From: Deltaproteobacteria bacterium
GTDB lineage: Bacteria > Myxococcota_A > UBA9160 > UBA6930
DNA length: 64,000 bases
Direction: 5' to 3'
Assembly (NCBI GenBank): GCA_016875395.1
Contig: VGRF01000001.1
Coordinates: 95,921 to 159,920, forward strand
The notes beneath the pieces were generated by a model, which saw only the letters and a list, made by a program, of their open reading frames with translations, was not told the DNA's origin and ran no database searches. Made by a program: the position numbers and the translations under genes. Within the stretch, counting starts at the first letter, position 1, and every line of letters starts with the position of its first letter. Of this stretch, positions 4,260 to 61,390 are shown in pieces.

Positions 4260-4367
4260 CGCTCGCCTCCGTTTCCGGCTCGCTGCGGTGAGCGGCCGCA
4301 CCATCCGTTTCGGCGGCGGCGAGAGCGCGCGTGTGACCGATCGCACACGCGCGTGGCGACACATCTC

Positions 4368-4385
4368 CGTGACGCGAACGTGAAG
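4368..4385 (-). promoter_or_regulatory. Pho-box-like 7-4-7 direct repeat (minus strand reads CTTCACG-TTCG-CGTCACG)
   Basis: Two 7-nt repeats with 11-bp periodicity in the phoB/secreted-protein divergent region. The half-site (C/T)GTCAC(A/G/C) also occurs at 6641 and 8028. Confidence 0.35.
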
Positions 4386-4446
4386 GTCCGAGGAAGCTGC
4401 GCGGCGACGCCTGCTCAGCGCGCTCGGCTGCCGATAGATTGCGCGC

Positions 4447-5127
4447 ATGCCGAGTACGATTCTGGTCGTCGAAGACGAGCCCGATCTGGCCGAGCTCGTG
4501 CGCTTCCACCTGAGTCAGGCGGGCTTCGCGGTCGAAGTTGCACATTCAGGGAGTGCTGGGCTGACTTCGATCCGCCGCGCGCGGCCCGCACTCGTCGTGC
4601 TCGACCTGATGCTCCCAGACTTGTCAGGCACCGAGGTCTGTCGCGAGGTGCGCGGCGATCCCAAGCTGCGCGACCTCCCCATCCTGATGCTGACTGCGCG
4701 TGCCGACGAGGTGGACCGTGTGGTCGGCTTCGAGCTCGGCGCGGACGATTACGTGACGAAGCCGTTCAGCCCGCGCGAGCTCGTGCTGCGCGTGCGCGCC
4801 ATTCTGCGCCGCGCCGAAGGCGAGGCGGAGCCTGCCGCGGTGCTCCGCCGCGGCGCACTGCAGCTCGATGCCGAGCGGCATCGCTGTACGGTCGACGGCG
4901 CCGCCGTCGATCTCACGGCGAAAGAGTTCCGCCTGCTCGAAGTGCTGATGTCGCGGCCGGGCCACGTGATGACGCGCCAGCGCCTGCTCGACGACGTCTG
5001 GGGCTCCGACATCACCGTCACCGAGCGCACGATCGACACGCACCTGAAGCGCCTGCGCGAGAAGCTCGGCGGCGCGGGCGACTTGATCGAGACCGTGCGC
5101 GGCGTCGGATACCGTCTCGCGGACTAG
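4447..5127 (+). CDS. phoB: OmpR-family response regulator, PhoB-like
   Basis: Receiver domain (VVEDEPDL, DLMLPDLSG, KPF) plus a winged-helix C-terminus ending GVGYRLAD. The phoB assignment comes from context: phoR and pstSCAB-phoU lie downstream. Confidence 0.88.
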   Translation: MPSTILVVEDEPDLAELVRFHLSQAGFAVEVAHSGSAGLTSIRRARPALVVLDLMLPDLSGTEVCREVRGDPKLRDLPILMLTARADEVDRVVGFELGADDYVTKPFSPRELVLRVRAILRRAEGEAEPAAVLRRGALQLDAERHRCTVDGAAVDLTAKEFRLLEVLMSRPGHVMTRQRLLDDVWGSDITVTERTIDTHLKRLREKLGGAGDLIETVRGVGYRLAD

Positions 5128-5287
5128 AACCCATCTCAGAATTCCGGACCGAGCCCGGCGCGCGGACTTGGCCGGCTGGCGAGGCGCGCGAGCGAAGGCG
5201 TATCCGTGGATACTTCGAGCGAAGCGCAACGAAGCCAGACGGACAAAGACGCGCGCCAGGCGACGGGAGGAATTCTGAGATGGGTTC
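5127..5287. repeat. R1 copy A: 161-bp palindromic MITE-like element with 19-bp perfect terminal inverted repeats
   Basis: Arms GAACCCATCTCAGAATTCC and GGAATTCTGAGATGGGTTC. Central palindrome GTATCC-GT-GGATAC at 5200-5213. TA on both flanks. A second copy sits at 54768-54973. Confidence 0.85.
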
Positions 5288-5303
5288 TAAGGGCGGGTTC
5301 CGC

Positions 5304-6620
5304 ATGCGCGCGCGATTCATCGCGGGAGTCGTGGCGATCGCGTTCGCTGCATGGCTTGCGGGCGAGGCGGCGCACGGCCTCGCGGCGCCGCTGCGGGCGC
5401 TCGTGGTGTTAGGGGCCGCGCTCGGGCTCGGCGCGCTGCTCGTGCACGCCCACGTTCGCCGCCTCGAAGAAGTGCGCGGCGCGCTCGACGCAGTGCTTGC
5501 GGGCGCACCGCGCGCGCGCATCGAGCGCTCGAGCAGCGGCGCGATCGGCGCGCTCTCGCGCGCGGTGGATGCGGTGGGCGCCGCGCTGCGCGTGCGTGAC
5601 GCATCGGCCGCAGCAGCGCGCGAACGCCTCGAAGCCGTGCTCGACGCGATGGTTGAGGGCGTGCTCGTGCTCGGCCCCGACGGCCGCGTGCAGCTCGCCA
5701 ACGCGCGCCTGCGCGAGCTGTTCAGCGTGTGGGGCGAAGTCGCGGGCCGCACGCCGCTCGAAGTGATCCGCCGCGCGGACGTGGACGAGCTGTTAGGGCT
5801 CGCGGGGCGAACGAGTGAGCCCGTCGCGCTCGACCTCGCGCTCGGCGACGACGGCTCGCTCGAAGTCCACGCGCGCCGCTTCCCCGCGCAGGGAGAGAGG
5901 CAAGGCGTCGTCGCCGTCTTTCACGACGTGAGCGAGATCCGGCGGCTCGAGAGCCACCGCCGCGAGTTCGTGGCGAACGTTTCGCACGAGCTGCGCACGC
6001 CGCTCACCGCGATTCAAGGCTATGCGGAGACGCTCGCTGCGAACGACCTCGAGCCCGAGCGGCGCAAGCAGTACGTCGAGACGATCACGCGCAACGCCGA
6101 GCGGCTGCGCGCGCTGATCGAGGATCTGCTCGAGCTCGCGCGCGTGGAAGGCGGGAAGCGCACGCTCGCGCCGGAGGCGATCGATGCCAGCGCGTTCATC
6201 GCCGCGCTGCTGCGCGAGCTGCGCCCGCGGCTCGAGGCGCGGAGGCTTGCGGCTTCCTGCGTGGGCGCCGCTCAGGTGCTCGCCGATCGCCGCGCACTCG
6301 AGCAGATCGTGCAGAACCTGCTCGACAACGCGGTCAAGTACACGGAGCCCGGCGGCCGCATCGAGGTGCGCCTTTCGCGCGATGGCGCGCGCGCGCGCAT
6401 CGAGGTCGCGGACACGGGCATCGGCATTCCCGAGCGCGACCGCGCGCGCGTCTTCGAGCGCTTCTACCGCGTCGACAAGGCGCGCTCGCGCGATCTCGGC
6501 GGCACCGGCCTCGGGCTCTCGATCGTGAAGCACCTCGCCCAAGCGATGGACGGCGACATCTTCGTCACCTCCGCCGAAGGCCAAGGCTCCACGTTCACGG
6601 TGACGTTGCCCGCGGCTTGA
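5304..6620 (+). CDS. phoR: Phosphate-regulon sensor histidine kinase, PhoR-like
   Basis: Two N-terminal TM helices, a PAS-like segment, H-box FVANVSHELRTPLTAIQGY, and ATPase boxes (NLLDNAVKYT, DTGIGIP, GGTGLGLSIVKH). The start is ATG 5304, or ATG 5280 inside the R1 right arm. The 755-aa track ORF is an artefact of upstream read-through. Confidence 0.88.
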   Translation: MRARFIAGVVAIAFAAWLAGEAAHGLAAPLRALVVLGAALGLGALLVHAHVRRLEEVRGALDAVLAGAPRARIERSSSGAIGALSRAVDAVGAALRVRDASAAAARERLEAVLDAMVEGVLVLGPDGRVQLANARLRELFSVWGEVAGRTPLEVIRRADVDELLGLAGRTSEPVALDLALGDDGSLEVHARRFPAQGERQGVVAVFHDVSEIRRLESHRREFVANVSHELRTPLTAIQGYAETLAANDLEPERRKQYVETITRNAERLRALIEDLLELARVEGGKRTLAPEAIDASAFIAALLRELRPRLEARRLAASCVGAAQVLADRRALEQIVQNLLDNAVKYTEPGGRIEVRLSRDGARARIEVADTGIGIPERDRARVFERFYRVDKARSRDLGGTGLGLSIVKHLAQAMDGDIFVTSAEGQGSTFTVTLPAA

Positions 6621-12428: not shown

Positions 12429-12445
12429 GCAAGCGGCGCATCGCC

Positions 12446-12492
12446 GCGCGCAGCGAGGCGAAGTCTTCGGAGCCGAGCGGAGGTCGAACAGT
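12446..12492 (+). repeat. R2-core motif copy (GCGCGCAGCGAGGCGAAG..GAGCGGAG) in the pstB-phoU spacer
   Basis: Shares GCGCGCAGCGAGGCGAAG and GCCGAGCGGAG with 37871-37895 and with the insert in R1 copy B (54868-54905). Confidence 0.6.
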
Positions 12493-12546
12493 GGCTTCTA
12501 CATCAGTGAGGACGCGAAAGTCGCGCGCGACCGCGCCGTTGCGAGC

Positions 12547-33250: not shown

Positions 33251-35080
33251 ATGAGCGAGTTCGACGAATCTGGACGCAGCAGCCGTGGATTCTTGCGCCG
33301 CTTCGGCCCCGGGCGCGATGGCGAGGCCGAGGGAGAGCGCGAGCGGGAGCGCACGATGGCGCGCTCGCTCCAGGAGGAGGCCGAGGATCTGCGCGAGGCG
33401 CTGCGCTTCTTCGGCGGCGATTCCGCCGAGTTCCGCCGCCGCCTCGATCGCATCCTCGCGGAGTACGAGGCGCAGCGCCGGCGCGCGACGTTGCTGCGCG
33501 ATCAGCTCGGCGACGCCGAGCGCCAGAACGAGAAGCTCGTCGCGACGCTGCAAGAGGCGAAGCAGCAGATCGAGCTGCTGAAGGAAGAAGTCGACAAGCT
33601 GTGCGCGCCGCCGAACGGCTACGGCGTGTTCATCCGCAGCAACAAGGACAGCACGGCGGAGATCATCGTCGACGGCAAGGCGATGCGCGTGAACGTGCAT
33701 CCGAACGTCGACACCACGACGTTCGAGGAGGGTCAGCTCGTCGTCCTCAACGAGGCGTTCAACGTGGTCGAGGGCTCGGGCTTCACGCAGCGCGGCGAGA
33801 TCGTCTCGATCTCCGAGATTCTCGGCGACGGCCGCGCGGTGGTGCTCGGGCACACCGACGACGAGCGCGTCGTGACGCTCGCTTCGCCGCTGCGCCGCGA
33901 GCGCCTCAAGGTCGGCGACAACCTGCTCGTCGACACGCGCACGCAGTACGCGTTCGAGAAGATGCCGAAGAGCGCGGTGGAAGAAGTCGCGCTCGAGGAA
34001 GTTCCGGACGTCACCTACGACCAGATCGGCGGCCTCGGCGAGCAGGTGCAGATCCTGCGCGACGCGATCGAGCTGCCGTATCTGCACCCCGACGTGTTCG
34101 CGGAGCACAAGCTCCATCCGCCGAAGGGCATCCTGCTCTACGGGCCGCCCGGCTGCGGCAAGACGCTGATCGCGAAGGCCGTCGCGAACTCGCTCGCGAA
34201 GCGCATCGAAGAGCGCAGCGGCCGCCAGACGCCCGCGTACTTCCTCAACGTGAAGGGCCCAGAGCTCCTCAACAAGTACGTCGGCGAGACCGAGCACAAG
34301 ATCCGCGAAGTCTTCAAGCGCGCGCGCGAGAAGGCGAGCGAAGACGTGCCGGTGGTGATCTTCTTCGACGAGATGGACTCGCTGTTCCGCATGCGCGGAT
34401 CGGGCATCTCCTCGGACATGGAGGCCACCGTCGTCGCGCAGTTCCTGAGCGAGATCGACGGCGTCGAGTCGCTGAAGAACGTGATCGTGATCGGCGCGAG
34501 CAACCGGCAGGACCTGATCGATCCCGCGGTGCTGCGCCCGGGCCGCCTCGACCTCAAGGTGAAGGTGAGCCGCCCGGACAAGCAGGCCGCGTTCGAGATC
34601 TTCACGAAGTACTTCACGCCGGATCTGCCCATGCACGCGTCGATGACGTCGCGCTACGGCAGCGACCTCACGAGGGCCTGCGAGCAGATGCTGCGCGAGA
34701 CGATCGAGAAGATGTACTCGACGGGCGACGACAACAAGTTCCTCGAGGTCACGTACGCGAAGGGCGAGCGCGAGATCTTCTACTTCAAGGACTTCTCGAG
34801 CGGCGCGATGATCGAGAACATCGTGGCGCGCGCGAAGAAGATGGCGGTGAAGCGGTTGATCGACGCGGGCGAGCGCGGCATCAAGATCGACGACCTGCAC
34901 ACGGCGGTGCGGGACGAGTTCAAGGAGAACGAGGATCTGCCCAACACCACCAATCCTGACGACTGGGCGCGCATCTCCGGCCGCAAGGGCGAGCGCATCA
35001 TCAACGTGCGCACGCTCATCACGGGAATCAGCCGGAAGGAACGCTCCATCGAGAACGTCGACTCCGGTCAGTACCTGTAA
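33251..35080 (+). CDS. mpa: Proteasome-associated AAA+ ATPase Mpa/ARC
   Basis: N-terminal coiled coil (LVATLQEAKQQIELLKEEVDKLCAPPNGYG), OB domains, Walker A GPPGCGKT, Walker B VVIFFDEMD, and the C-terminal GQYL proteasome-docking motif. Confidence 0.95.
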   Translation: MSEFDESGRSSRGFLRRFGPGRDGEAEGERERERTMARSLQEEAEDLREALRFFGGDSAEFRRRLDRILAEYEAQRRRATLLRDQLGDAERQNEKLVATLQEAKQQIELLKEEVDKLCAPPNGYGVFIRSNKDSTAEIIVDGKAMRVNVHPNVDTTTFEEGQLVVLNEAFNVVEGSGFTQRGEIVSISEILGDGRAVVLGHTDDERVVTLASPLRRERLKVGDNLLVDTRTQYAFEKMPKSAVEEVALEEVPDVTYDQIGGLGEQVQILRDAIELPYLHPDVFAEHKLHPPKGILLYGPPGCGKTLIAKAVANSLAKRIEERSGRQTPAYFLNVKGPELLNKYVGETEHKIREVFKRAREKASEDVPVVIFFDEMDSLFRMRGSGISSDMEATVVAQFLSEIDGVESLKNVIVIGASNRQDLIDPAVLRPGRLDLKVKVSRPDKQAAFEIFTKYFTPDLPMHASMTSRYGSDLTRACEQMLRETIEKMYSTGDDNKFLEVTYAKGEREIFYFKDFSSGAMIENIVARAKKMAVKRLIDAGERGIKIDDLHTAVRDEFKENEDLPNTTNPDDWARISGRKGERIINVRTLITGISRKERSIENVDSGQYL

Positions 35081-35125
35081 GCGGCGGGCGGCTCGTGCCC
35101 GTCACCCGGAGTTCGTGGAGCGCCG

Positions 35126-36610
35126 ATGGCGATACCGAAGGTGATGGGCACCGAGATCGAGTTCGGAATTGCGGTCCAGAACGACCGCGATTTCGACCCG
35201 ATCTCGAGCTGCGTGCTGCTGGTGAACGCGTACCGCGAAGATCGCCTCGCGGGCATCCTGTGGGACTACGACCAGGAGAATCCCCTCGCCGACGCGCGCG
35301 GCTTCCAGGTCGACGGCGAGAAGTACACGCCGAACCAGCAAGAGAACATCGCGCGCAACAAGACGCTCGAGAACGGCGCGCGTTACTACGTCGACCACGC
35401 GCACCCCGAGTACTCGTGCCCGGAAGTGACGAACCCGCGCGAGCTCGTGATTCACGAGAAGGCCGGCGAGCGCGTGATCGAAATCTCGCGCCGCGAGGCG
35501 ACGCAGCTGCTTCCCGCCGGAACGCAGCTGCTCGTGCACAAGAACAACAGCGACCACAAGGGCAACAGCTACGGCTCGCACGAGAACTACTTGATGGACC
35601 GGCGCACGTCCTTCAAGCAGATCGTCGAGCACCTGATGCCGTTCTTCGTGACGCGCCAGGTCTACGCGGGCGCGGGCAAGGTGGGCAGCGAGAACCGCGC
35701 GCATCCGTGTCTGTATCAGCTCTCGCAGCGCTCGGACTTCTTCGAGACGGAAGTGGCGCTCGACACGATGGTGAAGCGCCCGATCATCAACACGCGCGAC
35801 GAGCCGCACGCCGACCGCGAGAAGTATCGGCGGCTGCACGTGATCGTCGGCGACTCGAACATGAGCGAGTACACGATCTGGCTGCGCCAAGGTGTTACGG
35901 CGATCGTGCTCTCGATGATCGAGGACGGCGCGATCGACCGCGACCTCACGCTGCGCGATCCGGTTCGCGCGATCAAAGAGGTGTCGCACGACATCTCGCT
36001 GAAGCGAACGATCGAGCTCAACTCGGGCAAGAAGCTCAGCGCGGTGCAGCATCAGCGCGAGTTCTACGCGCTCGCGAAGAAGTATCAGGCTGCGCGCGAG
36101 CTGCCGGCTTGGGCGCCCGAGATCATGGATGCGTGGCTCGACGTGCTCGACGCGCTCGAGCGCGATCCGCGCGAGCTCGCCGATCGCCTCGACTGGGTGG
36201 CGAAGCAGGCGATGATCGAGGCGTTCCTGGAGCGCAAGGGGCTCGATTGGGAATCGCCGCAGGCGCAGATGCTCGACCTGCAGTTCCACGACGTGCGGCC
36301 CGAGAAGGGCCTCGCGTATCTGCTCGAGCGGCAAGGCAAGCTGCGCAGGCTCGTCAGCGACGACGAGATCGTGCGCGCGATCACCGAGCCGCCCGAGGAC
36401 ACGCGCGCGTACTTCCGGGGTCAGTGCCTCAAGCGCTACGGTGAAGCGGTGTTCGGCGTGAACTGGGATTCGATCTCGTTCGGCATCGGCGACGAGCCGA
36501 TCAAGCGAGTGATGATGGCGGAACCGCTCAAAGGCTCGATGAAGCACGTCGAAGAGTTGCTCGACCGCTCGCCGACGGCGGCCGAGCTCGTGCGCAACCT
36601 GCGCACCTGA
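35126..36610 (+). CDS. dop: Pup deamidase/depupylase Dop (Pup-ligase family)
   Basis: MGTEIEFGI, YVDHAHPEYS, GNSYGSHENYLM, QLSQRSDF, INTRDEPHAD and YFRGQCLKRYG closely parallel mycobacterial Dop as I recall it. Position between mpa and pup. Confidence 0.9.
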   Translation: MAIPKVMGTEIEFGIAVQNDRDFDPISSCVLLVNAYREDRLAGILWDYDQENPLADARGFQVDGEKYTPNQQENIARNKTLENGARYYVDHAHPEYSCPEVTNPRELVIHEKAGERVIEISRREATQLLPAGTQLLVHKNNSDHKGNSYGSHENYLMDRRTSFKQIVEHLMPFFVTRQVYAGAGKVGSENRAHPCLYQLSQRSDFFETEVALDTMVKRPIINTRDEPHADREKYRRLHVIVGDSNMSEYTIWLRQGVTAIVLSMIEDGAIDRDLTLRDPVRAIKEVSHDISLKRTIELNSGKKLSAVQHQREFYALAKKYQAARELPAWAPEIMDAWLDVLDALERDPRELADRLDWVAKQAMIEAFLERKGLDWESPQAQMLDLQFHDVRPEKGLAYLLERQGKLRRLVSDDEIVRAITEPPEDTRAYFRGQCLKRYGEAVFGVNWDSISFGIGDEPIKRVMMAEPLKGSMKHVEELLDRSPTAAELVRNLRT

Positions 36611-36627
36611 CCTCCGAGGAGAACACC

Positions 36628-36894
36628 ATGATTCGCCGAAAGCACTCTCTCGCGAACGACGCGGACCTCGCGGGCTTCGGCGTCGCGCACGCCGCCGAGC
36701 AGCAGCAGAAGCAAAAGCAGGGCGGCGGCGAGGGTGAGGGCGGCGCACCGTCCGGCGAAGGCGGCAAGAAGCTCGCCAAGAAGGGCGAGGCGCTGAAGGA
36801 AGAGATGGACTCGCTGATGGACGAGATCGACAACGTGCTCGAAGAGAACGCCGAGGAGTTCGTGAAGAACTACGTCCAGCGAGGCGGCGAGTAG
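36628..36894 (+). CDS. pup: Prokaryotic ubiquitin-like protein Pup (88 aa, C-terminal GGE)
   Basis: C-terminal half EEMDSLMDEIDNVLEENAEEFVKNYVQRGGE matches the Pup helix and GGE tail. GAGGAG lies 7 nt upstream of the ATG. Confidence 0.92.
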   Translation: MIRRKHSLANDADLAGFGVAHAAEQQQKQKQGGGEGEGGAPSGEGGKKLAKKGEALKEEMDSLMDEIDNVLEENAEEFVKNYVQRGGE

Positions 36895-36940
36895 GTAGGC
36901 CGGAACGCCGCGAGCGGCCGCGGGGGGCGAGCCGAGCGCG

Positions 36941-37759
36941 GTGTTCGAACACGCTGGAGGGGGCGTGCAGTTCTGGGATGGCTACAAGGGCTCGAGCTTC
37001 CTCGAGCTTCTCGCGACGGATCATCCGCAGCTGCGGCCTGATCTCGGCGGCTTGATCTCGCAGATCGGCGCTGCGCCGAACGTTCCGCACGGCACGACCT
37101 GCCTCGGTCTTCGCTACGGCGACGGCGCGCTCGTCGCGGCCGATCGGCTTGCGACGATGGGTTATCAGGTCGCGAGCCGCGAGATCGAGAAGCTCTGGGT
37201 CACGGACAACACCTCCGTGATGGCGATCGCCGGCGCCGCGGGCCCCGCGATCGAGATGGCGCGCCTGATCGCCGTGCAATTCGAGCACCGCGAGAAGATC
37301 GAGGGCGAGCCGCTCGAGCTCGAGGGCAAAGCCAACACGCTCTCGCAGCTGATCCGGCAGAACCTGCCCGCCGCGATGCAAGGCCTCGCCGTGGTGCCGC
37401 TGTTCGCGGGCTACGACGCGCGTCGTCGCACGGGCCGCGTCTGGAAGTACGAGATCACCGGCGGACGCTACGAAGAGCGCGAGTACGAGTGCGTCGGCTC
37501 GGGCTCGATCTTCGCGCGCGAGTCGCTGAAGAAGAGCTTCCGCGCCGAGTCCTCGCGCGCCGACGCCGTGCTGATGGCGATCGAGGCGCTGAAGGACGCC
37601 GCGGACGAAGACCGCGCGACCGGCGGAGTCGACCTCGAGCGCGGCATCTTCCCGCGCGTGAAGACCTGCACCGCGCGCGGCGTCGAGGACGTCTCCGACG
37701 ACGAGATCGCGCAGGCCTACCAGCAAGTGCTCGAACGCCGCCGCCGCCCGCGCGGTTGA
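36941..37759 (+). CDS. prcB: 20S proteasome beta subunit
   Basis: 51-aa propeptide ending ..NVPHG, followed by TTCLGL. Thr1, Asp17 (AADR) and Lys33 (REIEK) are all present. GSGS motif. Confidence 0.95.
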   Translation: MFEHAGGGVQFWDGYKGSSFLELLATDHPQLRPDLGGLISQIGAAPNVPHGTTCLGLRYGDGALVAADRLATMGYQVASREIEKLWVTDNTSVMAIAGAAGPAIEMARLIAVQFEHREKIEGEPLELEGKANTLSQLIRQNLPAAMQGLAVVPLFAGYDARRRTGRVWKYEITGGRYEEREYECVGSGSIFARESLKKSFRAESSRADAVLMAIEALKDAADEDRATGGVDLERGIFPRVKTCTARGVEDVSDDEIAQAYQQVLERRRRPRG

Positions 37760-37834
37760 GGCGTCGAGCCGACGCAACTCCAACATCGCCCGTAACAAGA
37801 GGACCACGCCCCGCCCGAACGCGGCTCGAGAAGC

Positions 37835-37900
37835 CGCAAGCCGACCGAGCGAGCCCGCTCGCTCCGTCGGCGCGCAGCGAGGCGAAGCCGAGCGGAGAAT
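37835..37900 (+). repeat. 13-bp-stem hairpin plus R2-core motif in the prcB-prcA spacer
   Basis: CCGACCGAGCGAG-CCCG-CTCGCTCCGTCGG (37841-37870, one mismatch), followed by GCGCGCAGCGAGGCGAAGCCGAGCGGAG. Confidence 0.7.
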
Positions 37901-37908
37901 CGTAAGAG

Positions 37909-38604
37909 ATGGCGTTTCCGTTCTACGTGAACCCGGAGCAGATGACCGCCGAGAAGGCGGAGTACGCGCGCAAAGGCATCGCGCGCGGGCGATCGATCGT
38001 GACGCTCGAGTTCGGCGGCGGCGTGCTGATGGTCGGCGAGAATCCGCTCAAGCTGCAGAAGGTCGGCGAGATCTACGACCGCATCGCATTCGCCGGCGTC
38101 GGCAAGTTCAGCGAGTTCGATCGGCTGCGGAAAATGGGCATCCAGTGGGCCGACGTGGAGGGCTTCCGCTTCAGCCGCGACGACGTGCGCGGCAAGGCAC
38201 TCGCGAACCTCTACTCGCAGGTGCTCGGCGAAGAGTTCACGCGTTCGATCAAGCCGTTCGAAGTGGAGATCGTGGTCGCGGAGGTCGGCGACGAGAATCT
38301 CGCGGGCCACGAGAAGAACGCGCTCTACAAGATCGGCTTCGACGGCACGATCCAGGACCAAGAAGGCTTCATCGTGATCGGCGGCAGCGTCGACAACCTC
38401 CAGAGCCACATGAACACGCACTTCCGCGCGGGCCTCTCGCTCGGCGCCGCGTTGAAGCTCGGCCGCGACGCGCTGCAGCGCGCAGAGAACGGAAACCCCG
38501 ACCTCGGCGCGCGGCACCTCGAAGTCGCGCTGCTCGATCGCGCGCGCACCGGCCGCAAGTTCCGCCGCCTCGCGCAGAACGAAATCTCCCAGCTCCTGTC
38601 CTGA
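37909..38604 (+). CDS. prcA: 20S proteasome alpha subunit
   Basis: MAFPFYVNPEQMTAEKAEYARKGIARGRSIV.. is alpha-subunit-like at the N-terminus. 231 aa, immediately after prcB. Confidence 0.92.
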   Translation: MAFPFYVNPEQMTAEKAEYARKGIARGRSIVTLEFGGGVLMVGENPLKLQKVGEIYDRIAFAGVGKFSEFDRLRKMGIQWADVEGFRFSRDDVRGKALANLYSQVLGEEFTRSIKPFEVEIVVAEVGDENLAGHEKNALYKIGFDGTIQDQEGFIVIGGSVDNLQSHMNTHFRAGLSLGAALKLGRDALQRAENGNPDLGARHLEVALLDRARTGRKFRRLAQNEISQLLS

Positions 38605-38679
38605 CGGCGCGCGCCCGCAGCGCAGCGGCAACTTCGCTGCGATGCTGTGCAAGTCGCCCGCGCGACGTGCCGATGAGCG

Positions 38680-40119
38680 ATGGGTACATTCGCCAAACCG
38701 GGGCGAGGGTCTGTGCAAAAGCGCATCTACGGCGTCGAGACCGAGTACGGAATCATCTTCACGCCCGAGGGGCGGAAGACGCTGCCCGTCGAGAAGGCGA
38801 TCCGCTTCCTGTTCGAGAAGCTGATCACCACCGAGCACTTCCTCAACGTCTTCCTCGAGAACGGCGCGCGCTTCTACCAGGACACTGGCTGCCACCCCGA
38901 ATACGCGACGCCCGAGTGCGCGTCGCCGCGCCAGCTGATCGTGTACGACAAGGCCGGCGAGCGCATTCTCGAAGAGCTGCAGGACTACGCCGAAGAAAAG
39001 ATCCGCGAGGAGCGCATCGCGGGGAAGCTCTCCATCTTCAAGAACAACACCGACTTCGTCGGCAACAGCTACGGCTGCCACGAGAACTACCTCGTCGACC
39101 GCGACGTCGACTTCTACTACCTCGCCGAGCAGCTGATCCCGTTCCTCGTGACGCGCCAGATCTACGCCGGCGCGGGCAAGGTGTTCCAGACGCAGGAAGG
39201 CGTGCATTACTGCGTCAGCCAGCGCGCGCAGCACATCTATCAGAAGATCAGCGGCACCACGACGAACGACCGCTCGATCATCAACACGCGCGACGAGCCC
39301 CACGCCGACCGCGAAAAGTTCCGCCGCCTGCACGTGATCGTGGGCGACTCGAACATGTCGGAGTACACGAACTTCCTGAAGATCGGCGCGTGCGCCGTCG
39401 TGCTCCAGATGATCGAGGACAACTACATCAACAAGGACTTCACCCTGCGCAATCCGGTGAAGGCCATCAAGGACATCTCGTACGACACGACTTGCAAGCG
39501 CAAGCTGCGCCTCGACAACGGGCGCGAGTATTCGCCGATCGAGATTCAGCGCGAGTACTGCGAGATGGCGCAGAAGTACGTCGAGCAATACCCGGTCTCC
39601 GACGAGCTGAAGCAGTCGGTCGTGATGTGGCAGCACGTGCTCGACTGCCTCGACACCGACCCCGACAAGCTCGATCGCCAGATCGACTGGGTGATCAAGC
39701 GGCGCCTGATCGAGAACTGGATCCAGGGCCACGACTCGCGCTGGAGCGATCCGCGCGTGTTCATGCTCGATCTGCAGTACCACGATCTGCGCATGAACCG
39801 CGGGCTCTACTACTTGTTGGAGCGCAAGGGCGCGGTGGAGCGAATTCTCACCGACGAAGAAGTGGACAAGGCGAAGACCGAGCCGCCGCCGGATACGCGC
39901 GCGAAGATGCGAGGCGAGTTCATCAAGCTCGCGCGCCAGAACGGGATCCAATACGACCTCGACTGGTCGAACATCCGCCTCGGCAACCTGCTGAACGTGC
40001 GCGTGATCTGTAACAACCCGTTCGAGACGGATACCGAGAAGGTCGCCGAGCTCGTGCGCACGATTCAGAAGACGAACCTCAGGAAGACATCGTTGAGCAA
40101 GCTCGTGATTCAGAGCTGA
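38680..40119 (+). CDS. pafA: Pup--protein ligase PafA
   Basis: RIYGVETEYGI, GCHPEYATPEC, GNSYGCHENYLV, CVSQRAQHI, INTRDEPHAD and DWVIKRRL parallel mycobacterial PafA. The exact start is uncertain (ATG 38680). Confidence 0.9.
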   Translation: MGTFAKPGRGSVQKRIYGVETEYGIIFTPEGRKTLPVEKAIRFLFEKLITTEHFLNVFLENGARFYQDTGCHPEYATPECASPRQLIVYDKAGERILEELQDYAEEKIREERIAGKLSIFKNNTDFVGNSYGCHENYLVDRDVDFYYLAEQLIPFLVTRQIYAGAGKVFQTQEGVHYCVSQRAQHIYQKISGTTTNDRSIINTRDEPHADREKFRRLHVIVGDSNMSEYTNFLKIGACAVVLQMIEDNYINKDFTLRNPVKAIKDISYDTTCKRKLRLDNGREYSPIEIQREYCEMAQKYVEQYPVSDELKQSVVMWQHVLDCLDTDPDKLDRQIDWVIKRRLIENWIQGHDSRWSDPRVFMLDLQYHDLRMNRGLYYLLERKGAVERILTDEEVDKAKTEPPPDTRAKMRGEFIKLARQNGIQYDLDWSNIRLGNLLNVRVICNNPFETDTEKVAELVRTIQKTNLRKTSLSKLVIQS

Positions 40120-52128: not shown

Positions 52129-54768
52129 GTGTCCGCGCCGCGCTCTGCTCACGACATCCGCGAAAGCTTCCTCGCGTTCTTCGAGTCGAAGGGGCACACC
52201 CGCGTCGCGAGCGCGTCGCTCGTTCCCAGCGACCCGACGCTGCTGTTCACGAACGCGGGCATGGTGCCGTTCAAGCGCGTGTTCACGGGTGAGGAGACGC
52301 GGCCGTACAAGCGCGCGACCACGACGCAGAAGGTCATGCGCGTGTCGGGCAAGCACAACGACCTCGAGGAGGTCGGCCGCAGCGCGCGCCACCACACCTT
52401 CTTCGAGATGCTCGGGAACTTCTCGTTCGGCGACTACTTCAAGCACGAGGCGATCGAGTTCGCGTGGGAGCTGATTACGCAGCACTGGAAGCTCGAGCCG
52501 AAGGACCTCGTGGTCTCGGTGTTTCGCGAGGACGACGAGGCGGCTGCGATCTGGGAGCGCGAGATCGGCGTCCCCGCTTACAAGATCTATCGGCTCGGCG
52601 AGAGCGAGAACTTCTGGCAGATGGGCGACACCGGGCCGTGCGGCCCTTGCACCGAGATCCACATCGATCGGGGCGAGATCGCGGGGGTGCCGAACGACGA
52701 CCCCTCGAGCGCCTCGGGCCGCTTCCTCGAGTTCTGGAACCTCGTGTTCATGCAGTTCAACCGCGACGCGAGCGGCAAGCTCACGCCGCTGCCGAAGCCC
52801 TCGGTGGATACGGGCGCCGGGCTCGAGCGCGTGGCGCAGGTGCTGAACGGCTTCCGTAACAACTACGAGACCGACCTGTTCACGCCGATCCTGGCTCACG
52901 CGCAGTCGCTCTCGGGCGTGAGGCTCGGCCGCGCCGCGGAGAGCGACGTCTCGCTGAAGGTCGTCGCGGATCACGCACGCGCCGTCACGTTCATGATCGG
53001 CGACGGCGTGCTGCCCGCGAACGAGGGCCGCGGCTACGTGCTGCGCCGCATCCTGCGCCGTGCGGCGCGCCACGGCGTCTTGTTGGGGCTCGATCGCCCG
53101 TTCCTGCACGAAGTCTCGAACACCGTGATCGACGAGATGTCGCGCGCGTTCCCGGAGCTCGCCGAGCGCCGCGCCTACATCACGAGCCGCGTGCGCCGCG
53201 AGGAGGAGCGCTTCCTCGCCACGCTGAAGAGCGGCCTCGCGCTGCTGAACGACGAAGTCGCCGCGCTGAAGGCGAAGGGCGGCACGACGCTGCCCGGCGC
53301 CGTCGTGTTCCGGCTCTACGACACGTTTGGCTTCCCCGTCGATCTCACGCAGGACGTGCTGAAGTCGCATGCGATGACCGTCGACGAGGCGGGCTTCGCG
53401 AGCGAGATGGAGACGCAGCGCGCGCGTTCGCGCGAGCACTGGAAGGGCAGCGGCGACACGGGCGTGGCGCAGATCTATGGACGCATCGCCGCGGACGTCG
53501 CGACGGAGTTCACGGGCTACGACACGCTCAGCGGCGAGTCCCGCGTGCGCGCGCTGCTCGTGAACGGCGCGCCGGTCGACGCCGCGAGCGAAGGCGCCGA
53601 GGTGGAGATATCCGTCGACGAGACGCCCTTCTACGCCGAGAGCGGCGGCCAAGTCGGCGACCGCGGCGTGATCGAGAGCGACGCCGCGCGCATCGAGATC
53701 ACCGACACGCAGCGCCCGAGCGGCCAGCTCGTGATGCACCGCGGCCGCGTCGCGCGCGGCACGCTGCGCGCGGGCGACGCGGTGCGCCTCGCGGTCGACG
53801 CCGAAGCGCGCGCGGCCACGGTCCGGAATCACTCGGGCACGCATCTCCTTCACGCGGCGCTGCGCGAAGTCGTGGGTCCGCAGGCGATGCAGAAGGGCTC
53901 GCTCGTCGCGCCCGATCGCCTGCGCTTCGACTTCACGAACGACGCGCCGCTGAGCGAGGTGGAGATCGAGCGCATCGAGGATCTCGTGAATCGCTGGATC
54001 GAGGCGAATGACGGCGGGCGCACACGGCAGATGGCGTACAAGGAGGCCATCGCGGCCGGCGCCATGGCGCTGTTCGAGGAGAAGTACGGCGACGAGGTGC
54101 GCGTCGTGTCTTTCGGCGGCGTCTCGACCGAGCTGTGCGGCGGCACGCATGCGAAGGCGACGGGCGACATCGGGCTGCTGAAGATCATCAGCGAGTCCGG
54201 CATCGCCGCGGGGGTTCGGCGCATCGAGGCGCTGACGGGCCTCGGCGCCCTCGCGCACCTGCGCGCGCAAGAGAAGAAGCTGCGGCGCGTGAGCGAGGCG
54301 CTGAAGGTGCCGGCGGATCAGGTGGGCGATCGCGTCGAGAAGCTGCTCGACGAGCGCAAGGCGGCGGAGAAGCAGATCGCGGAGCTGAAGCGCGCGCAGT
54401 TCTCGGGCGGCGCGCAGAGCGCGGCGCAGACGCGCGAGATCGCCGGCGTGCAGGTGCTCGTGCGCCGCGCGGACGGCCTCGGCGGGAACGATCTGCGCGG
54501 GCTCGTCGACGATCTGCGCGGGCAAGTGAAGAGCGGGATCGTGCTCGTCGCTTCGAGCGAAGAGGGCAAGGTGGCGCTCGCGCTCGGCGTGAGCCCCGAT
54601 CTCAAGGACAAGCTCAAGGCCGGCGACCTCGTGCGCGAGATCAGCGCGGTGGTCGGCGGCAAGGGCGGTGGGCGGCCCGACTTCGCGCAGGGCGGCGGCA
54701 CCGACGCCGCGAAGCTCGATGCCGCGATCGAGCGCCTCTTCGCGCTCGTGGGCGAGGCGCGCGCCTAG
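52129..54768 (+). CDS. alaS: Alanine--tRNA ligase
   Basis: FTNAGM, HHTFFEMLGNFSFGDYFK, FWNLVFMQFN, editing motifs HSGTHLLH and CGGTH, C-terminal DHHA1-like GGKGGGRPDFAQGGG. GTG start at 52129. Confidence 0.95.
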   Translation: MSAPRSAHDIRESFLAFFESKGHTRVASASLVPSDPTLLFTNAGMVPFKRVFTGEETRPYKRATTTQKVMRVSGKHNDLEEVGRSARHHTFFEMLGNFSFGDYFKHEAIEFAWELITQHWKLEPKDLVVSVFREDDEAAAIWEREIGVPAYKIYRLGESENFWQMGDTGPCGPCTEIHIDRGEIAGVPNDDPSSASGRFLEFWNLVFMQFNRDASGKLTPLPKPSVDTGAGLERVAQVLNGFRNNYETDLFTPILAHAQSLSGVRLGRAAESDVSLKVVADHARAVTFMIGDGVLPANEGRGYVLRRILRRAARHGVLLGLDRPFLHEVSNTVIDEMSRAFPELAERRAYITSRVRREEERFLATLKSGLALLNDEVAALKAKGGTTLPGAVVFRLYDTFGFPVDLTQDVLKSHAMTVDEAGFASEMETQRARSREHWKGSGDTGVAQIYGRIAADVATEFTGYDTLSGESRVRALLVNGAPVDAASEGAEVEISVDETPFYAESGGQVGDRGVIESDAARIEITDTQRPSGQLVMHRGRVARGTLRAGDAVRLAVDAEARAATVRNHSGTHLLHAALREVVGPQAMQKGSLVAPDRLRFDFTNDAPLSEVEIERIEDLVNRWIEANDGGRTRQMAYKEAIAAGAMALFEEKYGDEVRVVSFGGVSTELCGGTHAKATGDIGLLKIISESGIAAGVRRIEALTGLGALAHLRAQEKKLRRVSEALKVPADQVGDRVEKLLDERKAAEKQIAELKRAQFSGGAQSAAQTREIAGVQVLVRRADGLGGNDLRGLVDDLRGQVKSGIVLVASSEEGKVALALGVSPDLKDKLKAGDLVREISAVVGGKGGGRPDFAQGGGTDAAKLDAAIERLFALVGEARA

Positions 54769-54960
54769 AACCCGTCTCAGAATTCCGGACCGAGCCCGGC
54801 GCGCGGGTTTGGCCGGCTGGCGAGGCGCGCGAGCGAAGGCGTATCAAAAGATACTTCGAGCGAAGCGCAAGCGGAGCGCGCAGCGAGCCGGAGGCGAGCG
54901 GAGTCGAAAGCGAGAGCAAGCCAGCCGGGCAAAGACGCGCGCCCGGCGAAGGGAGGAATT

Positions 54961-54973
<13 letters not shown>
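54768..54973. repeat. R1 copy B: 206-bp palindromic MITE-like element carrying a roughly 45-bp R2-core insert
   Basis: GAACCCGTCTCAGAATTCC ... GGAATTTTGAGCCGGGTTC. Collinear with copy A apart from the insert GCGGAGCGCGCAGCGAGCCGGAGGCGAGCGGAGTCGAAAGCGAGAGCAA. Confidence 0.85.
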
Positions 54974-56991
<2,018 letters not shown>

Positions 56992-60486: not shown

Positions 60487-60493
60487 GCCCGAG

Positions 60494-60610
60494 CCTCGCT
60501 GCGCGCTTCGCTGCCGCGTTGGCCTTCGCTCGCTGCGCCTCGCTGCGCGCTCCGCTTGCGCCGTTGGCCTCGCTCGATTGCACCGCGCCGCGCGCTCCGC
60601 TTGCCAGTCG
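60494..60610. repeat. Tandem array (about 2.7 x 44-45 bp) of the R2 core motif
   Basis: CCTCGCTGCGCGCTTCGCTGCCGCGTTGGCC (60494), CCTCGCTGCGCGCTCCGCTTGCGCCGTTGGCC (60538) and GCGCGCTCCGCTTGCCAG (60590), all in the bamD-TPR spacer. Confidence 0.75.
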
Positions 60611-61390
60611 TTACTGCGCGCTGGGGATTTGGTCTCGCGCCTGCTCGGCGACGTTGCTGGCGGGGTAGTTGTCGAGGATCACCTCGAACAGCTGCTGCGC
60701 GTCGTCGTCGCGGTTCATGCGGCGGTAGGCGATGCCGAGCTTGTAGAGCGCTTCAGCGTCGAGGCCGAGGCCGGGGAACTCGTCGATCACCGACTGATAC
60801 CGGTTCGCCGCGCTCTGATACTCCTCGCGGTCGAAGTAGAAGTCGCCCACGATCAGCGCCTGCTTCGCGAGCTTGCGGCGCAGCTTCTTCCAGAGCTCCT
60901 CGGCCTCCGCCGTCTCCGGCGCGTTCGGGTAGCGCAGGATCAGCTGATCGAGCGCGGCCACCGCCTCGCGCGTCTGCGTCTGGTCGCGCACCGACTTCTC
61001 AGACTGGCGCTCGTGGCAGAGCGCGGTGCGCAGCATGGTGTACGGCACCTTCTCGTGATCGGGGTGCAGCTGCGCGAAGTCGCGGTAGTAGCCGAGCGCT
61101 TCTTCCCAGCGGCTCTGCGCGAAGTGCGCGTCGGCGATGCGCAGCTCGGCGAGCACGGCGTATTCGCTGTAGGGGTAGTTGTCGATGATGTCCTGGAACT
61201 GGTCGATCGCGTCCTGGTAGTTCGCGAAGTTCACGCCGAGGATCGACCGGTCGTGTTCGAGCATCGCCACGCCTTGCTCGTAGAGCCGATCGGCCGAAGG
61301 CACTTCGCTGATCTCGTCGACGCCACTCGACGCGCAACCTGCGAGCAAAGCGACGAAAGCGAGGGCGGTGAGCAGCGCGGATCGGGACAT
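60611..61390 (-). CDS. bamD: Outer-membrane protein assembly factor BamD (YfiO) lipoprotein
   Basis: Lipobox LLAGC, a TPR-like body, and QDAIDQFQDIIDNYPYSEYAVLAELRIADAHF. Confidence 0.88.
   Translation of the reverse strand: MSRSALLTALAFVALLAGCASSGVDEISEVPSADRLYEQGVAMLEHDRSILGVNFANYQDAIDQFQDIIDNYPYSEYAVLAELRIADAHFAQSRWEEALGYYRDFAQLHPDHEKVPYTMLRTALCHERQSEKSVRDQTQTREAVAALDQLILRYPNAPETAEAEELWKKLRRKLAKQALIVGDFYFDREEYQSAANRYQSVIDEFPGLGLDAEALYKLGIAYRRMNRDDDAQQLFEVILDNYPASNVAEQARDQIPSAQ

Follow-up and report, generated by a model that had tools for sequence, protein, structure and literature searches.

A palindromic MITE family with TA target duplications, probably of IS630/Tc1-mariner type, in the phoB and alaS stop codons of an uncultured freshwater Myxococcota

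The 161-bp palindrome located at the phoB-phoR junction is a real MITE, i.e., a member of a class of elements already well known. Five copies were found at five unrelated loci, two of them in the window (the whole stretch of 64,000 nucleotides analysed here), where they start within the stop codons of phoB and alaS, respectively. The reading retained, with a probability of about 85%, is that of a non-autonomous element which duplicates a TA target in the IS630/Tc1-mariner mode and which has landed in these two stop codons. The family has the properties expected of a MITE: (i) short length (below about 800 bp) and no transposase coding; (ii) terminal repeats; (iii) a target duplication; (iv) copies at several loci whose orthologous sites are empty in relatives. 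The coordinates of the features are collected in Table 1.

Table 1. Features of the two window copies and of the genes next to them (positions are those of the window).
Feature	Position	Strand	Basis or remark
phoB (OmpR-family response regulator, 226 aa)	4447..5127	+	ORF; Pfam Response_reg and Trans_reg_C; NCBI MBM4381832.1
phoB stop TAG	5125-5127	+	final G is the first base of copy 1
Left duplicated TA	5125..5126	.	sequence and empty-site comparison
MITE copy 1	5127..5287	+	161 bp, imperfect palindrome
Left 19-bp terminal inverted repeat	5127..5145	+	GAACCCATCTCAGAATTCC
Apical hairpin of copy 1	5200..5213	+	GTATC-CGTG-GATAC
GGGAGG, SD-like	5265..5270	+	right arm of copy 1
Right 19-bp terminal inverted repeat	5269..5287	-	exact reverse complement of left repeat
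Element-borne ATG	5280..5282	+	in frame with phoR; JGI (IMG) gene-call start, 446-aa product
Right duplicated TA	5288..5289	.	with A5290, remnant of the ancestral phoB TAA stop
Native phoB-phoR spacer	5291..5303	+	13 nt, GGGCGGGTTCCGC
phoR from native start (438 aa)	5304..6620	+	orthologue N-termini; NCBI MBM4381833.1
alaS (879 aa, JGI call)	52129..54768	+	last base of TAG stop is the first base of copy 2
MITE copy 2	54768..54973	+	206 bp, right end degenerate
Extra 45 nt nested in copy 2	54870..54914	+	one unit of an unrelated 45-nt repeat
Element-borne GGGAGG-AATT-TTG	54951..54963	+	TTG 54961 in frame with ispG; JGI (IMG) start, 676 aa
ispG (gcpE) from native GTG	54976..56991	+	start 2 nt beyond the element; empty-site orthologues TAA-GTG, TAG-GTG
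Element end sequence			GAACCCNTCTCAGAATTCC; expected to bound any partner transposase gene

The structure of copy 1 described by the first-pass annotation was reproduced in all its coordinates: the 161-bp element with its perfect 19-bp terminal inverted repeats, the G of the phoB TAG as first base of the element, the TA at both ends, and, in the right arm, GGGAGG and an ATG in frame with phoR. In dinucleotide-preserving shuffles of the window, zero matches to such terminal repeats are expected. An inverted-repeat finder returned arms of 56 nt (5125-5180 and 5234-5289) which are 79% complementary, and the remainder is largely paired in the RNA fold; the whole element is thus an imperfect palindrome, as had been proposed. 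The copies (161-206 bp) contain short open frames only, without protein-family content in six-frame translation. Copy 1 was recovered at at least 99% identity in independent JGI, ENA and Logan assemblies.

Four more copies exist at unrelated loci, and the refutation test set by the first-pass annotation came out in its favour. Apart from the two window copies (5127-5287 and 54768-54973), the family is found in L018 (1200-1360), L029 (3691-3851) and L038 (4315-4475). Over their full 161 bp, copies 3-5 share 91-97% identity with copy 1. Terminal repeats are recognisable and GGGAGG is invariant in the five copies, which also keep the apical stem GTATC/GATAC around a variable 4-nt loop (CGTG, CGTC, AAAA, CGAC). 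The element-borne ATG is missing from copies 2 and 5 and is therefore not a feature of the family. Copy 5 (L038) adds about 54 residues to a called ORF, in which it is inserted in frame; its host gene looks like a decaying integrase-like gene. Several independent assemblies break within the element (L013, L016, L017).

Further copies were sought by two exact terminal-repeat scans, one covering 185,579 species-representative genomes and the other the JGI metagenome set. The genome scan gave 7 single matches in unrelated phyla, none extending past the 19-mer, i.e., a number at or below the chance expectation of about 17 (estimated from 18 specified bases and about 1.2e12 strand-bases). Among the 16 loci of the metagenome scan, only L018 and L029 are real copies; L019, also from Lake Tanganyika, matches by chance at a gene end. 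Neither viral contigs (two patterns) nor PLSDB plasmids (blastn) gave a match to the element. A six-frame peptide search of 5.8 billion proteins for ORF-embedded copies returned one, P0121, which is copy 5; this search used a concatenated element translation, and its candidate list may be swamped by Arg/Ala-rich words. No presence/absence polymorphism was seen within the population, every contig of which carries both window copies. Within the searched range, the family appears, from sequence matches, confined to a narrow lineage of uncultured freshwater Myxococcota represented by a Lake Tanganyika MAG.

At the phoB-phoR junction, deleting the element and one TA from the window sequence gives GAC TAA GGGCGGGTTCCGC ATG, with a 13-nt spacing. 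The empty sites for which the first-pass annotation proposed to look do exist: element-free junctions were found in two relatives (85% and 82% PhoR identity) and read GAC/GAT TGA GCGAGGCGTCGGC ATG. A third related lineage has TAA, followed by a different, unrelated insertion. Judging by these comparisons, the insertion point is within the TA of the phoB stop codon, ancestrally TAA, and not between the phoB stop and the phoR start as first described; the native phoR ATG (5304) and the 13-nt spacer were left intact. This spacer has the same length as in the empty-site relatives but is without their GAGG, and 5 of its 13 positions are changed.

The element-borne ATG at 5280 is located 24 nt upstream of the native one and in the same frame, with 9 nt between it and GGGAGG (GGGAGG-N9-ATG). 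The NCBI annotation starts phoR at 5304 whereas the JGI (IMG) call starts it at 5280, the predicted N-termini being MRAR... and MGSKGGFRMRAR..., respectively. Element-free PhoR orthologues begin at the equivalent of 5304 (MRARFI). Since the orthologue N-termini and the NCBI call both point to 5304, the element need not supply the SD and the ATG. The earlier statement that it supplies them thus stands in part: both are present and the ATG is in frame, but the native start is intact and neither is required.

Copy 2 is located at the alaS-ispG junction; its left 103 nt and right 56 nt show 93% and 87.5% identity to copy 1, respectively. It lacks the right-hand TA (GGGTTC/CG, the slash marking the end of the element). 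The unrelated 45-nt repeat of which it contains one unit also forms a tandem array at 60493-60605. The empty sites in relatives (88% and 86% IspG identity) read GCC TAA GTG and GCG TAG GTG. Removing copy 2 restores alaS-TA(A/G) directly abutting the ispG GTG, i.e., an original spacer of 0 nt. The in-frame position of TTG 54961 follows a 3-nt to 2-nt change in the right flank; the predicted IspG N-termini are LSRVPVRPF... from this TTG versus VRPF... from the native GTG. The element has replaced everything upstream of the ispG start, thus downstream translation must tolerate the element or use it.

TA is found on both sides in four of the five copies (1, 3, 4 and 5), the flanks being cTA/G...C/TAa for copy 1 and cTA/.../TAg for each of copies 3, 4 and 5; a single TA (or TGA) is found at the empty sites. 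The TA duplication of IS630/Tc1-mariner type, with which the first-pass annotation held the flanks to be compatible, is thus supported. The inferred targets are CTAG (three copies), CTAA (one copy) and CTA(A/G) (one copy). Since copy 1 is flanked by CTAG on the left and by CTAA on the right, the G belongs to the element and the duplication is of 2 bp, not of 4 bp; the reconstructed junction, with one TAA stop and a spacer as long as in the empty sites, argues for 2 bp as well. For IS630, a 2-bp duplication at a CTAG target is listed (PMC2577343 Table 1, citing Tenzen and Ohtsubo 1991).

The earlier description of the element as non-autonomous also holds, for no transposase or integrase domain was recorded or found, either by Pfam in the called genes of the window at about 0-15, 12.8-33.7 and 50.6-64 kb or by hmmscan in ten ORFs at 40-50 kb. 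The part at about 33.7-40.3 kb was inspected by eye only; it looks like Pup-proteasome genes. No DDE transposase was found in the scanned flanks of the window either. The genome, metagenome, viral and plasmid searches gave no autonomous element with matching terminal repeats, and the assignment to IS630 therefore draws solely on the TA duplication and the CTAG target. Mobilisation would be due to a cut-and-paste DDE transposase supplied from elsewhere, inserting at the TA of CTAG or CTAA and duplicating it.

Such targets are scarce. The host genome has a G+C content of 69.5%, the TA dinucleotide has a frequency of 0.8% in the 64-kb window, and CTAG occurs there 16 times versus about 180 expected (i.e., about ten-fold depleted), about 9 of these 16 sites being stop codons of predicted genes. 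The rare CTAG/CTAA sites of this G+C-rich genome are thus mostly stop codons. Both window copies sit in upstream stops (phoB and alaS), at tight operon junctions, because targets are rare and mostly stop codons. The first base of the element is G and its last is C, so that the left TA plus this G rebuilds a TAG stop, and PhoB is unchanged.

The RNA of positions 5120-5295 has a predicted energy of -104.6 kcal/mol versus a shuffle mean of -64.2 (z = -9.4; 0 of 200 shuffles as stable). The hairpin of copy 1 itself (-99.6 kcal/mol) has about 58-60 predicted pairs, the 19 at its base being perfect, and the energies of all the copies range from -99.6 to -118 kcal/mol. Across the stem, 98.6% of the cells are paired, and three pairs show compensatory double changes. 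A long near-perfect dsRNA stem of the Correia/NEMIS kind is therefore predicted between co-directional genes originally 13 nt and 0 nt apart. In the predicted fold, ATG 5280 is always paired (unpaired probability <=0.001); GGGAGG faces the left-arm CCGGACC, partly in an internal loop, with a mean unpaired probability of 0.33. More generally, the element-borne starts are essentially always paired according to an accessibility model in which nearly everything is paired in a G+C-rich mRNA. The scan gave no promoter or terminator consensus in or beside the element. No site resembling an intrinsic terminator is present in 4300-5700, the stem being followed by UAAGGGCGGG, without a U-tract. Rfam gave nothing at the gathering threshold for the whole window and nothing meaningful in E-value mode for 5050-5350; the sole match, to a microRNA-precursor model (24.8 bits versus a threshold of 142), is of the generic long-hairpin kind.

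Other origins of the palindrome were weighed against this reading. A native, vertically inherited attenuator or terminator of phoBR, or else an assembly artefact, was considered in view of the very stable hairpin between two cistrons. However, the same sequence is present at four other unrelated loci and absent from the three related lineages (two with the 13-nt spacer only, one with the unrelated insertion), there is no U-tract or terminator consensus, and the independent JGI, ENA and Logan assemblies agree; both proposals are refuted by the copies elsewhere and the empty sites, and their probability is practically nil. It is very improbable that the element is a REP/REPIN-type palindrome moved as ssDNA by a RAYT (IS200/IS605-like) without target duplication. 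The long near-perfect hairpin with conserved asymmetric bulges, the mostly extragenic copies and the high G+C of the genome would suit such a palindrome, but its terminal inverted repeats, perfect over 19 bp, extend right to its termini, TA is present on both sides in four of five copies with a single TA at the empty site, and the 161 bp, with an internal core which is not REP-like, far exceed a REP unit of 20-40 nt. Those parts of the window that were scanned gave no Y1 transposase, and the element does not qualify as REP/REPIN. As for the transposase family, the IS427-like group of IS5 has CTAG-like targets and duplications of 2-4 bp, and the MITE as described could have been mobilised by this group and not by IS630. 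CTAG is found on both sides in three of the five copies, and these flanks fit a 4-bp duplication (ends AACCC...GGGTT) or a 2-bp TA duplication. Nevertheless, a 4-bp duplication needs an extra mutation in copy 1 (CTAG left, CTAA right); the orthologous phoB-phoR site is TAA in one relative (with the different insertion after it) and TGA in two; and the closest empty site of copy 2 (same GCGCGCC context) has CTAA versus CTAG in the occupied left flank. An IS5-type mobilisation is thus quite unlikely.

It can also be asked whether the family was shaped or filtered by selection as operon-safe and functional as an RNA hairpin, i.e., whether it rebuilds the upstream stop, keeps an outward RBS and start only where these survive in frame with the downstream gene, and maintains a sense-strand hairpin as a processing or stabilising element. 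The left arm faces the gene reading into the element in all four informative copies, but the numbers are tiny (p ~0.12). An in-frame open start carried by the element is found at phoR (ATG 5280), lipB (the same ATG) and ispG (TTG 54961); counted as 2-3 of 3, this gives p ~0.04-0.11, the start-codon choice being flexible in the case of ispG. The invariance of GGGAGG in the five copies and the loss of the relatives' GAGG from the native phoR spacer point the same way; against them, the ATG is absent from copies 2 and 5, and the predicted equilibrium fold leaves the element-borne start codons fully paired. In all five copies, the sense RNA exceeds the antisense RNA in stability (by 3-19 kcal/mol), and one-sided stem transitions mostly give G.U on the sense strand; however, the tally is about 5-6 versus 1 (the counter-example being T41C in copy 1; p ~0.06-0.11), and the copies share ancestry, so that a conserved asymmetry may be merely inherited. 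Shaping or filtering by selection is on this evidence rather unlikely. It is unlikely that the family is adapted to, or strongly filtered for, operon junctions as a portable intercistronic module resetting the stoichiometry of neighbouring genes, a proposal which comprises stop-TA targeting, the stop rebuilt by the terminal G, an in-frame GGGAGG plus start and a selected sense hairpin. As part of this unlikely proposal, GGGAGG and the start would take over or back up initiation at phoR, at lipB and at ispG with its remodelled flank.

Several known systems are close to the TA-duplicating MITE described here. RUP (repeat unit of pneumococcus) is a 107-bp MITE attributed to IS630-Spn1 and inserting at TA (PMC2229807). 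Both are short non-autonomous elements with terminal inverted repeats and TA insertion, but they share no sequence similarity, and the partner IS of RUP is known from matching repeats whereas none was found here. In addition, unlike RUP, the present element has stops at its ends only and leaves five of the six frames open. The Correia/NEMIS elements of Neisseria are TA-flanked palindromes of about 100-155 bp, co-transcribed with neighbouring genes; their RNA hairpins are cleaved by RNase III, which alters flanking mRNA levels, and one size class, which is open-reading, occurs as fusions with genes (PMC2229807, PMC10969869). The likeness lies in the palindromic TA-flanked structure, the hairpin being here a predicted one; the two differ in sequence and in host phylum. 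Correia/NEMIS have RNase III processing, promoter activity and an IHF site, whereas no sigma-70 consensus was seen in the scan of the present element.

The ERIC/IRU elements of enterobacteria, about 127 bp long, are imperfect palindromes that carry TA at each terminus; they often lie immediately 3' of genes and are co-transcribed with an orientation-dependent effect on upstream mRNA stability (PMC3184786). They differ from the present family in acting through RNase E, in having no known transposase and in having no sequence relationship to it. Chunjie, a MITE found in Geobacter uraniireducens, lies inside a phosphate-uptake operon without destroying it and has a predicted RNA hairpin of about -98 to -130 kcal/mol (PMC3184786, PMC10969869). 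It is likewise a MITE of a 'deltaproteobacterium' with a very stable predicted hairpin. However, Chunjie is rich in A+T, and its terminal repeats are of 21 bp and its direct repeats of 9 bp; thus it uses a different transposase family and target rule. The comparison can be extended to elements within genes. Rickettsia palindromic elements insert in frame within genes, as does copy 5, which is the only intragenic copy here.

Regarding expression, the effects of the hairpin on RNA, like any selection on it, are suggestive only. In the folding model the element would be co-transcribed and form a hairpin between the phoB and phoR cistrons, and the previously coupled phoB stop and phoR start would have been pushed 163 nt apart. 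By analogy with the Correia, ERIC and REP elements, this hairpin resembles substrates of RNase III or 3' exonucleases, and since it is of the kind on which these enzymes act, the phoB:phoR ratio could rise through its processing. The right-arm GGGAGG plus start codon may allow the downstream gene to initiate at another site, in frame; such initiation would be optional at phoR and perhaps required at ispG, whose start codon has nothing else upstream of it.

Descriptions of MITEs from Myxococcota or from uncultured freshwater lineages are rare. The present family affects gene calling: two pipelines disagree on the start of phoR (5280 versus 5304), and the called start of ispG, and probably that of lipB, falls within the element. 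It also illustrates how an element targeting TA/CTAG is funnelled into stop codons where CTAG is depleted about ten-fold, and how a split stop is repaired by an element whose ends are G...C. The ispG gene is normally indispensable and the original alaS-ispG spacer was of 0 nt, thus a hairpin of about 58-60 predicted bp can stand between tightly coupled cistrons without abolishing the downstream gene. The alaS-ispG junction is a natural test of translational coupling, and in the case of phoBR the regulator-to-kinase ratio is a candidate target of natural perturbation by the element.

The first-pass annotation had described, at the phoB-phoR junction, a palindromic MITE-like element of 161 bp with perfect 19-bp terminal inverted repeats. 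The sequence, an inverted-repeat finder and the RNA fold bear out its coordinates, from the G of the phoB TAG stop (its first base, as annotated) to 5287, and the GGGAGG, the in-frame ATG and the TA on both sides lie where they had been placed. The first 19 bases are GAACCCATCTCAGAATTCC and the last 19 are exactly complementary, a match absent from shuffled versions of the window. The finder gives arms of 56 nt, 79% complementary, and the RNA fold pairs most of the remaining element around the apex GTATC-CGTG-GATAC. The RNA of 5120-5295 has a predicted folding energy of -104.6 kcal/mol, where shuffled sequences give -64.2 +/- 4.3 (z = -9.4). Position 82 of the element (5208) is G in the window (apical loop CGTG) and C (CGTC) in the metagenome contigs. 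CGTC is found in 7/7 metagenome contigs with a complete copy at this locus and is their sole difference from the window, so that, apart from this base, the population carries the element fixed and without variation.

Coordinates of the repeats and neighbouring features (bare numbers, window; L-numbers, loci on other contigs)
Feature	Position	Remark
phoB	4447-5127	stop TAG 5125-5127
Copy 1	5127-5287	phoB-phoR junction
Flanking TA dinucleotides, copy 1	5125-5126 and 5288-5289	
Apex, copy 1	5200-5213	
GGGAGG	5265-5270	
Element-borne ATG	5280	in frame with the phoR ORF
Copy 2	54768-54973	206 bp, alaS-ispG junction
Terminal repeats, copy 2	54768-54786 and 54955-54973	
Copy 3	L018 1200-1360	in CTAG, 4 nt past a TAA stop
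Copy 4	L029 3691-3851	between two convergent stops
Copy 5	L038 4315-4475	in frame within a called ORF
ORF of 346 aa, "hypothetical protein"	L038 4012-5052	contains copy 5
Insertion of ~115 nt	L035 9870-10000	directly after the phoB TAA
Compensatory pair 1	repeat position 7	A-U to G-C
Compensatory pair 2	position 16	U-A/A-U/U.G
Compensatory pair 3	alignment columns 34 and 173	G-C/C-G
45-nt repeat, 2.5-copy tandem array	60493-60605	downstream of the gene at 60611-61390
45-nt repeat, elsewhere	12440-12498, ~37870-37913, L018 1381-1486, L035 9883-9933	
45-nt repeat, single unit	54870-54914	nested inside copy 2
Pup-proteasome-type cluster	33251-40119	by eye
Small ORF of this cluster	36628-36894	
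dnaB (924 aa)	L039/L040 1-647	~6-10 kb beyond the right end of the window

The search for further copies of the 19-bp arm, which the annotation had proposed, yields a repeat family of five copies. Copy 2, in the same window, matches copy 1 at 93% identity in its left 103 nt and at 87.5% in its right 56 nt, and its first base is the G of the alaS TAG stop. Copies 3 and 4, obtained by exact-pattern scan of JGI metagenome contigs, are both full and lie on one 291-kb contig; they are 96-97% identical to copy 1, with unrelated flanks. Copy 5 (91% identity) was reached by a protein search with the six-frame translation of the element. The exact-pattern scan of 185,579 species-representative genomes gave just single 19-mers at chance level, and no copies were found in the viral contigs and plasmids searched; at the stringency used the family thus appears confined to a narrow lineage. 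Several assemblies (L013, L016, L017) are broken within the element, and assemblers tend to break at dispersed repeats. The host, named "MAG: Deltaproteobacteria bacterium" at NCBI and with close relatives labelled Myxococcota, is a population found in numerous Lake Tanganyika metagenomes; contigs carrying the locus come from IMG samples whose ids appear in the data-availability statement of PMC8245535.

The ORF containing copy 5 adjoins PIN/PhdYeFM toxin-antitoxin genes. Its C-terminal half resembles by eye a tyrosine recombinase (integrase), and it is probably a decaying integrated element; RUP and Correia elements similarly insert into mobile-element genes.

Element-free junctions, looked for in relatives as the annotation had suggested, occur at both loci of the window. 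PhoR relatives at 85% and 82% identity read GAC/GAT TGA GCGAGGCGTCGGC ATG, i.e., stop, 13 nt and start; removal of 5127-5287 and one TA from the window leaves GAC TAA GGGCGGGTTCCGC ATG, with the same 13-nt spacing. IspG relatives at 88% and 86% identity read GCC TAA GTG and GCG TAG GTG, the alaS stop abutting the ispG start, while the window reads GCC TA/G...(206 bp)...C/CG GTG. TA flanks copies 1, 3, 4 and 5 on both sides, in a window where this dinucleotide has a frequency of just 0.8%, which upholds the proposed TA target duplication. The deduced targets are CTAG (three), CTAA (one) and CTA(A/G) (one). Copy 1 has CTAG on the left and CTAA on the right, thus the G belongs to the element and the duplication is of 2 bp. 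These results show that a TA-duplicating, CTAG/CTAA-targeting non-autonomous MITE has inserted separately into the phoB and alaS stop codons, both stops being rebuilt and the downstream coding sequences left intact.

In a third relative (84% PhoR identity) the phoB stop TAA is followed by a different insertion of ~115 nt, thus the junction has been hit independently at least twice in the clade. This insertion, identical in L036 and L037, begins CAGAC, finishes CAGACTCCTA and includes the 45-nt repeat motif; the native 13-nt spacer is intact after it.

The window has 69.5% G+C and contains 16 CTAG against ~180 predicted from base composition; about 9 of the 16, including both occupied ones, are gene stop codons in a crude gene model. 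As CTAG is rare and mostly found at stops, and as an element seeking CTAG/CTAA cannot survive inside essential genes, it lands in or beside stop codons. Moreover, with G as the first and C as the last base of the element, TA+G restores a TAG to a gene entering it from either side.

No transposase was found in the Pfam-annotated stretches (called genes at ~0-15 kb, 12.8-33.7 kb, 50.6-64 kb and ~6.6 kb beyond the window) or among ten ORFs submitted to hmmscan in 40-50 kb; ~33.7-40.3 kb was inspected by eye alone. The genes in the Pfam-annotated and hmmscan-covered stretches are housekeeping only (the pst-phoU-ppk phosphate cluster; mreB, recA, pilT; alaS, ispG), in agreement with the element having been called non-autonomous. 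IS630 is on record as duplicating 2 bp, the TA within CTAG (PMC2577343 Table 1, citing Tenzen and Ohtsubo 1991), and comparable reasoning assigned RUP, a pneumococcal MITE, to a transposase of the IS630 family (PMC2229807). Given that the element is a MITE, the mobilising transposase would belong to the IS630 family with a probability of about 0.7, an IS5/IS427-type enzyme being the main alternative. The element joins the known class of small MITEs and its kind is not new: RUP, Correia/NEMIS, ERIC and Nezha are the same kind of thing, whereas Chunjie, with 9-bp duplications and A+T-rich, is a different family.

The element was also said to supply the Shine-Dalgarno and the ATG of phoR. Both signals are present and in frame, but the native start and the 13-nt spacer are intact, so that the element need not supply them. 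Element-free PhoR orthologues begin MRARFI, which corresponds to ATG 5304 (those at greater distance begin 2-4 residues earlier), and NCBI starts phoR there (438 aa, MBM4381833.1), whereas JGI (IMG) uses ATG 5280 (446 aa). The odds that 5280 is used are roughly even. The spacer of the window lacks the GAGG that 3/3 relatives have 7 nt before the ATG (5/13 positions differ), and GGGAGG-N9-ATG is, as sequence, a good initiation signal, without stop ahead of 5304. Against this, the predicted ensemble has ATG 5280 paired practically always and leaves GGGAGG free for only about one-third of the time; moreover copies 2 and 5 have no ATG, because terminal-repeat position 7 is there G-C, not A-T.

In the five-copy alignment 98.6% of stem cells are paired, with compensatory double changes in three pairs. 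The sense RNA (the strand of the gene reading into the element) is more stable than the antisense in 5/5 copies, by 3-19 kcal/mol. By hand count from this alignment, one-sided stem transitions are mostly G.U on the sense strand (~5-6 wobbles vs 1 mismatch, T41C in copy 1). In 4/4 informative copies it is the same arm that is turned towards the gene reading in. Each of these signals, the pairing included, suggests selection on a hairpin transcribed with its neighbours, the copies being few and related and none of the tests significant. Neither a promoter or intrinsic-terminator consensus in or next to the element nor a matching Rfam family was found. The element would be transcribed with the operon, folding into a hairpin with some 58-60 predicted base pairs that would break direct stop-start coupling; GGGAGG and the start codon of the right arm may offer an alternative ribosome entry point. 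Co-transcribed Correia elements are processed by RNase III and ERIC by RNase E (PMC2229807, PMC3184786, PMC10969869), and by analogy the hairpin is likely a substrate for double-strand-specific or 3'-end processing, which would tend to favour phoB over phoR.

A second repeat, unrelated to the MITE, has a 45-nt unit with core AGCGGAGCGCGCAGCGAGGC; single units are also present apart from the tandem array, and the nested one accounts for the extra 45 bp of copy 2. The window contains 5 matches to the core motif vs 0.44 expected. Three of its occurrences (window 37909, L018, L035) directly precede an ATG, resembling in sequence a shared leader, GAGCGGAG-N6-9-ATGGC. The cluster at 33251-40119 looks like a Pup-proteasome-type cluster in a Myxococcota-like MAG, with an AAA ATPase having recorded Prot_ATP_ID_OB domains, two PafA/Dop-like ORFs (MAIPKVMGTEIEFG... 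and ...YGVETEYGI...), a small ORF and two ORFs of about 230-270 aa. Precomputed Pfam hits indicate an intein in dnaB, with a homing-endonuclease domain of the LAGLIDADG type.

From the empty sites, ispG started directly after the alaS stop before insertion. Only 2 nt now separate its GTG (54976) from the foot of a hairpin whose own folding energy is -118 kcal/mol, and everything upstream of this GTG is element sequence. The right flank of copy 2 is CG (2 nt) instead of the expected TA + A/G (3 nt), which puts an element-borne TTG (54961), 4 nt after GGGAGG, in frame with ispG; JGI gene calls start ispG there. In copy 3 the element ATG shares the frame of the lipB start ~120 nt downstream, with no stop between them (L018 1326 vs ~1473, potentially a third element-internal start call). 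That 3/3 co-directional contexts are in frame is suggestive, the sample being tiny, start choice flexible and the result not significant. Gene-caller starts fall inside the MITE because of its GGGAGG, and lead to MITE-derived N-terminal extensions in protein databases.

ispG is usually essential in organisms whose sole isoprenoid route is the MEP pathway; a possible ispE of this pathway is a GHMP-kinase gene, its identity unconfirmed, next to pth and the L25 gene, where ispE is usually found. Translation downstream of copy 2 would thus have to tolerate or use the element, and this junction is a natural test of translation restart behind a large hairpin. For the family, a modest interest lies in the way stop codons act as a funnel when G+C is high, and in the self-repairing TA/G end.
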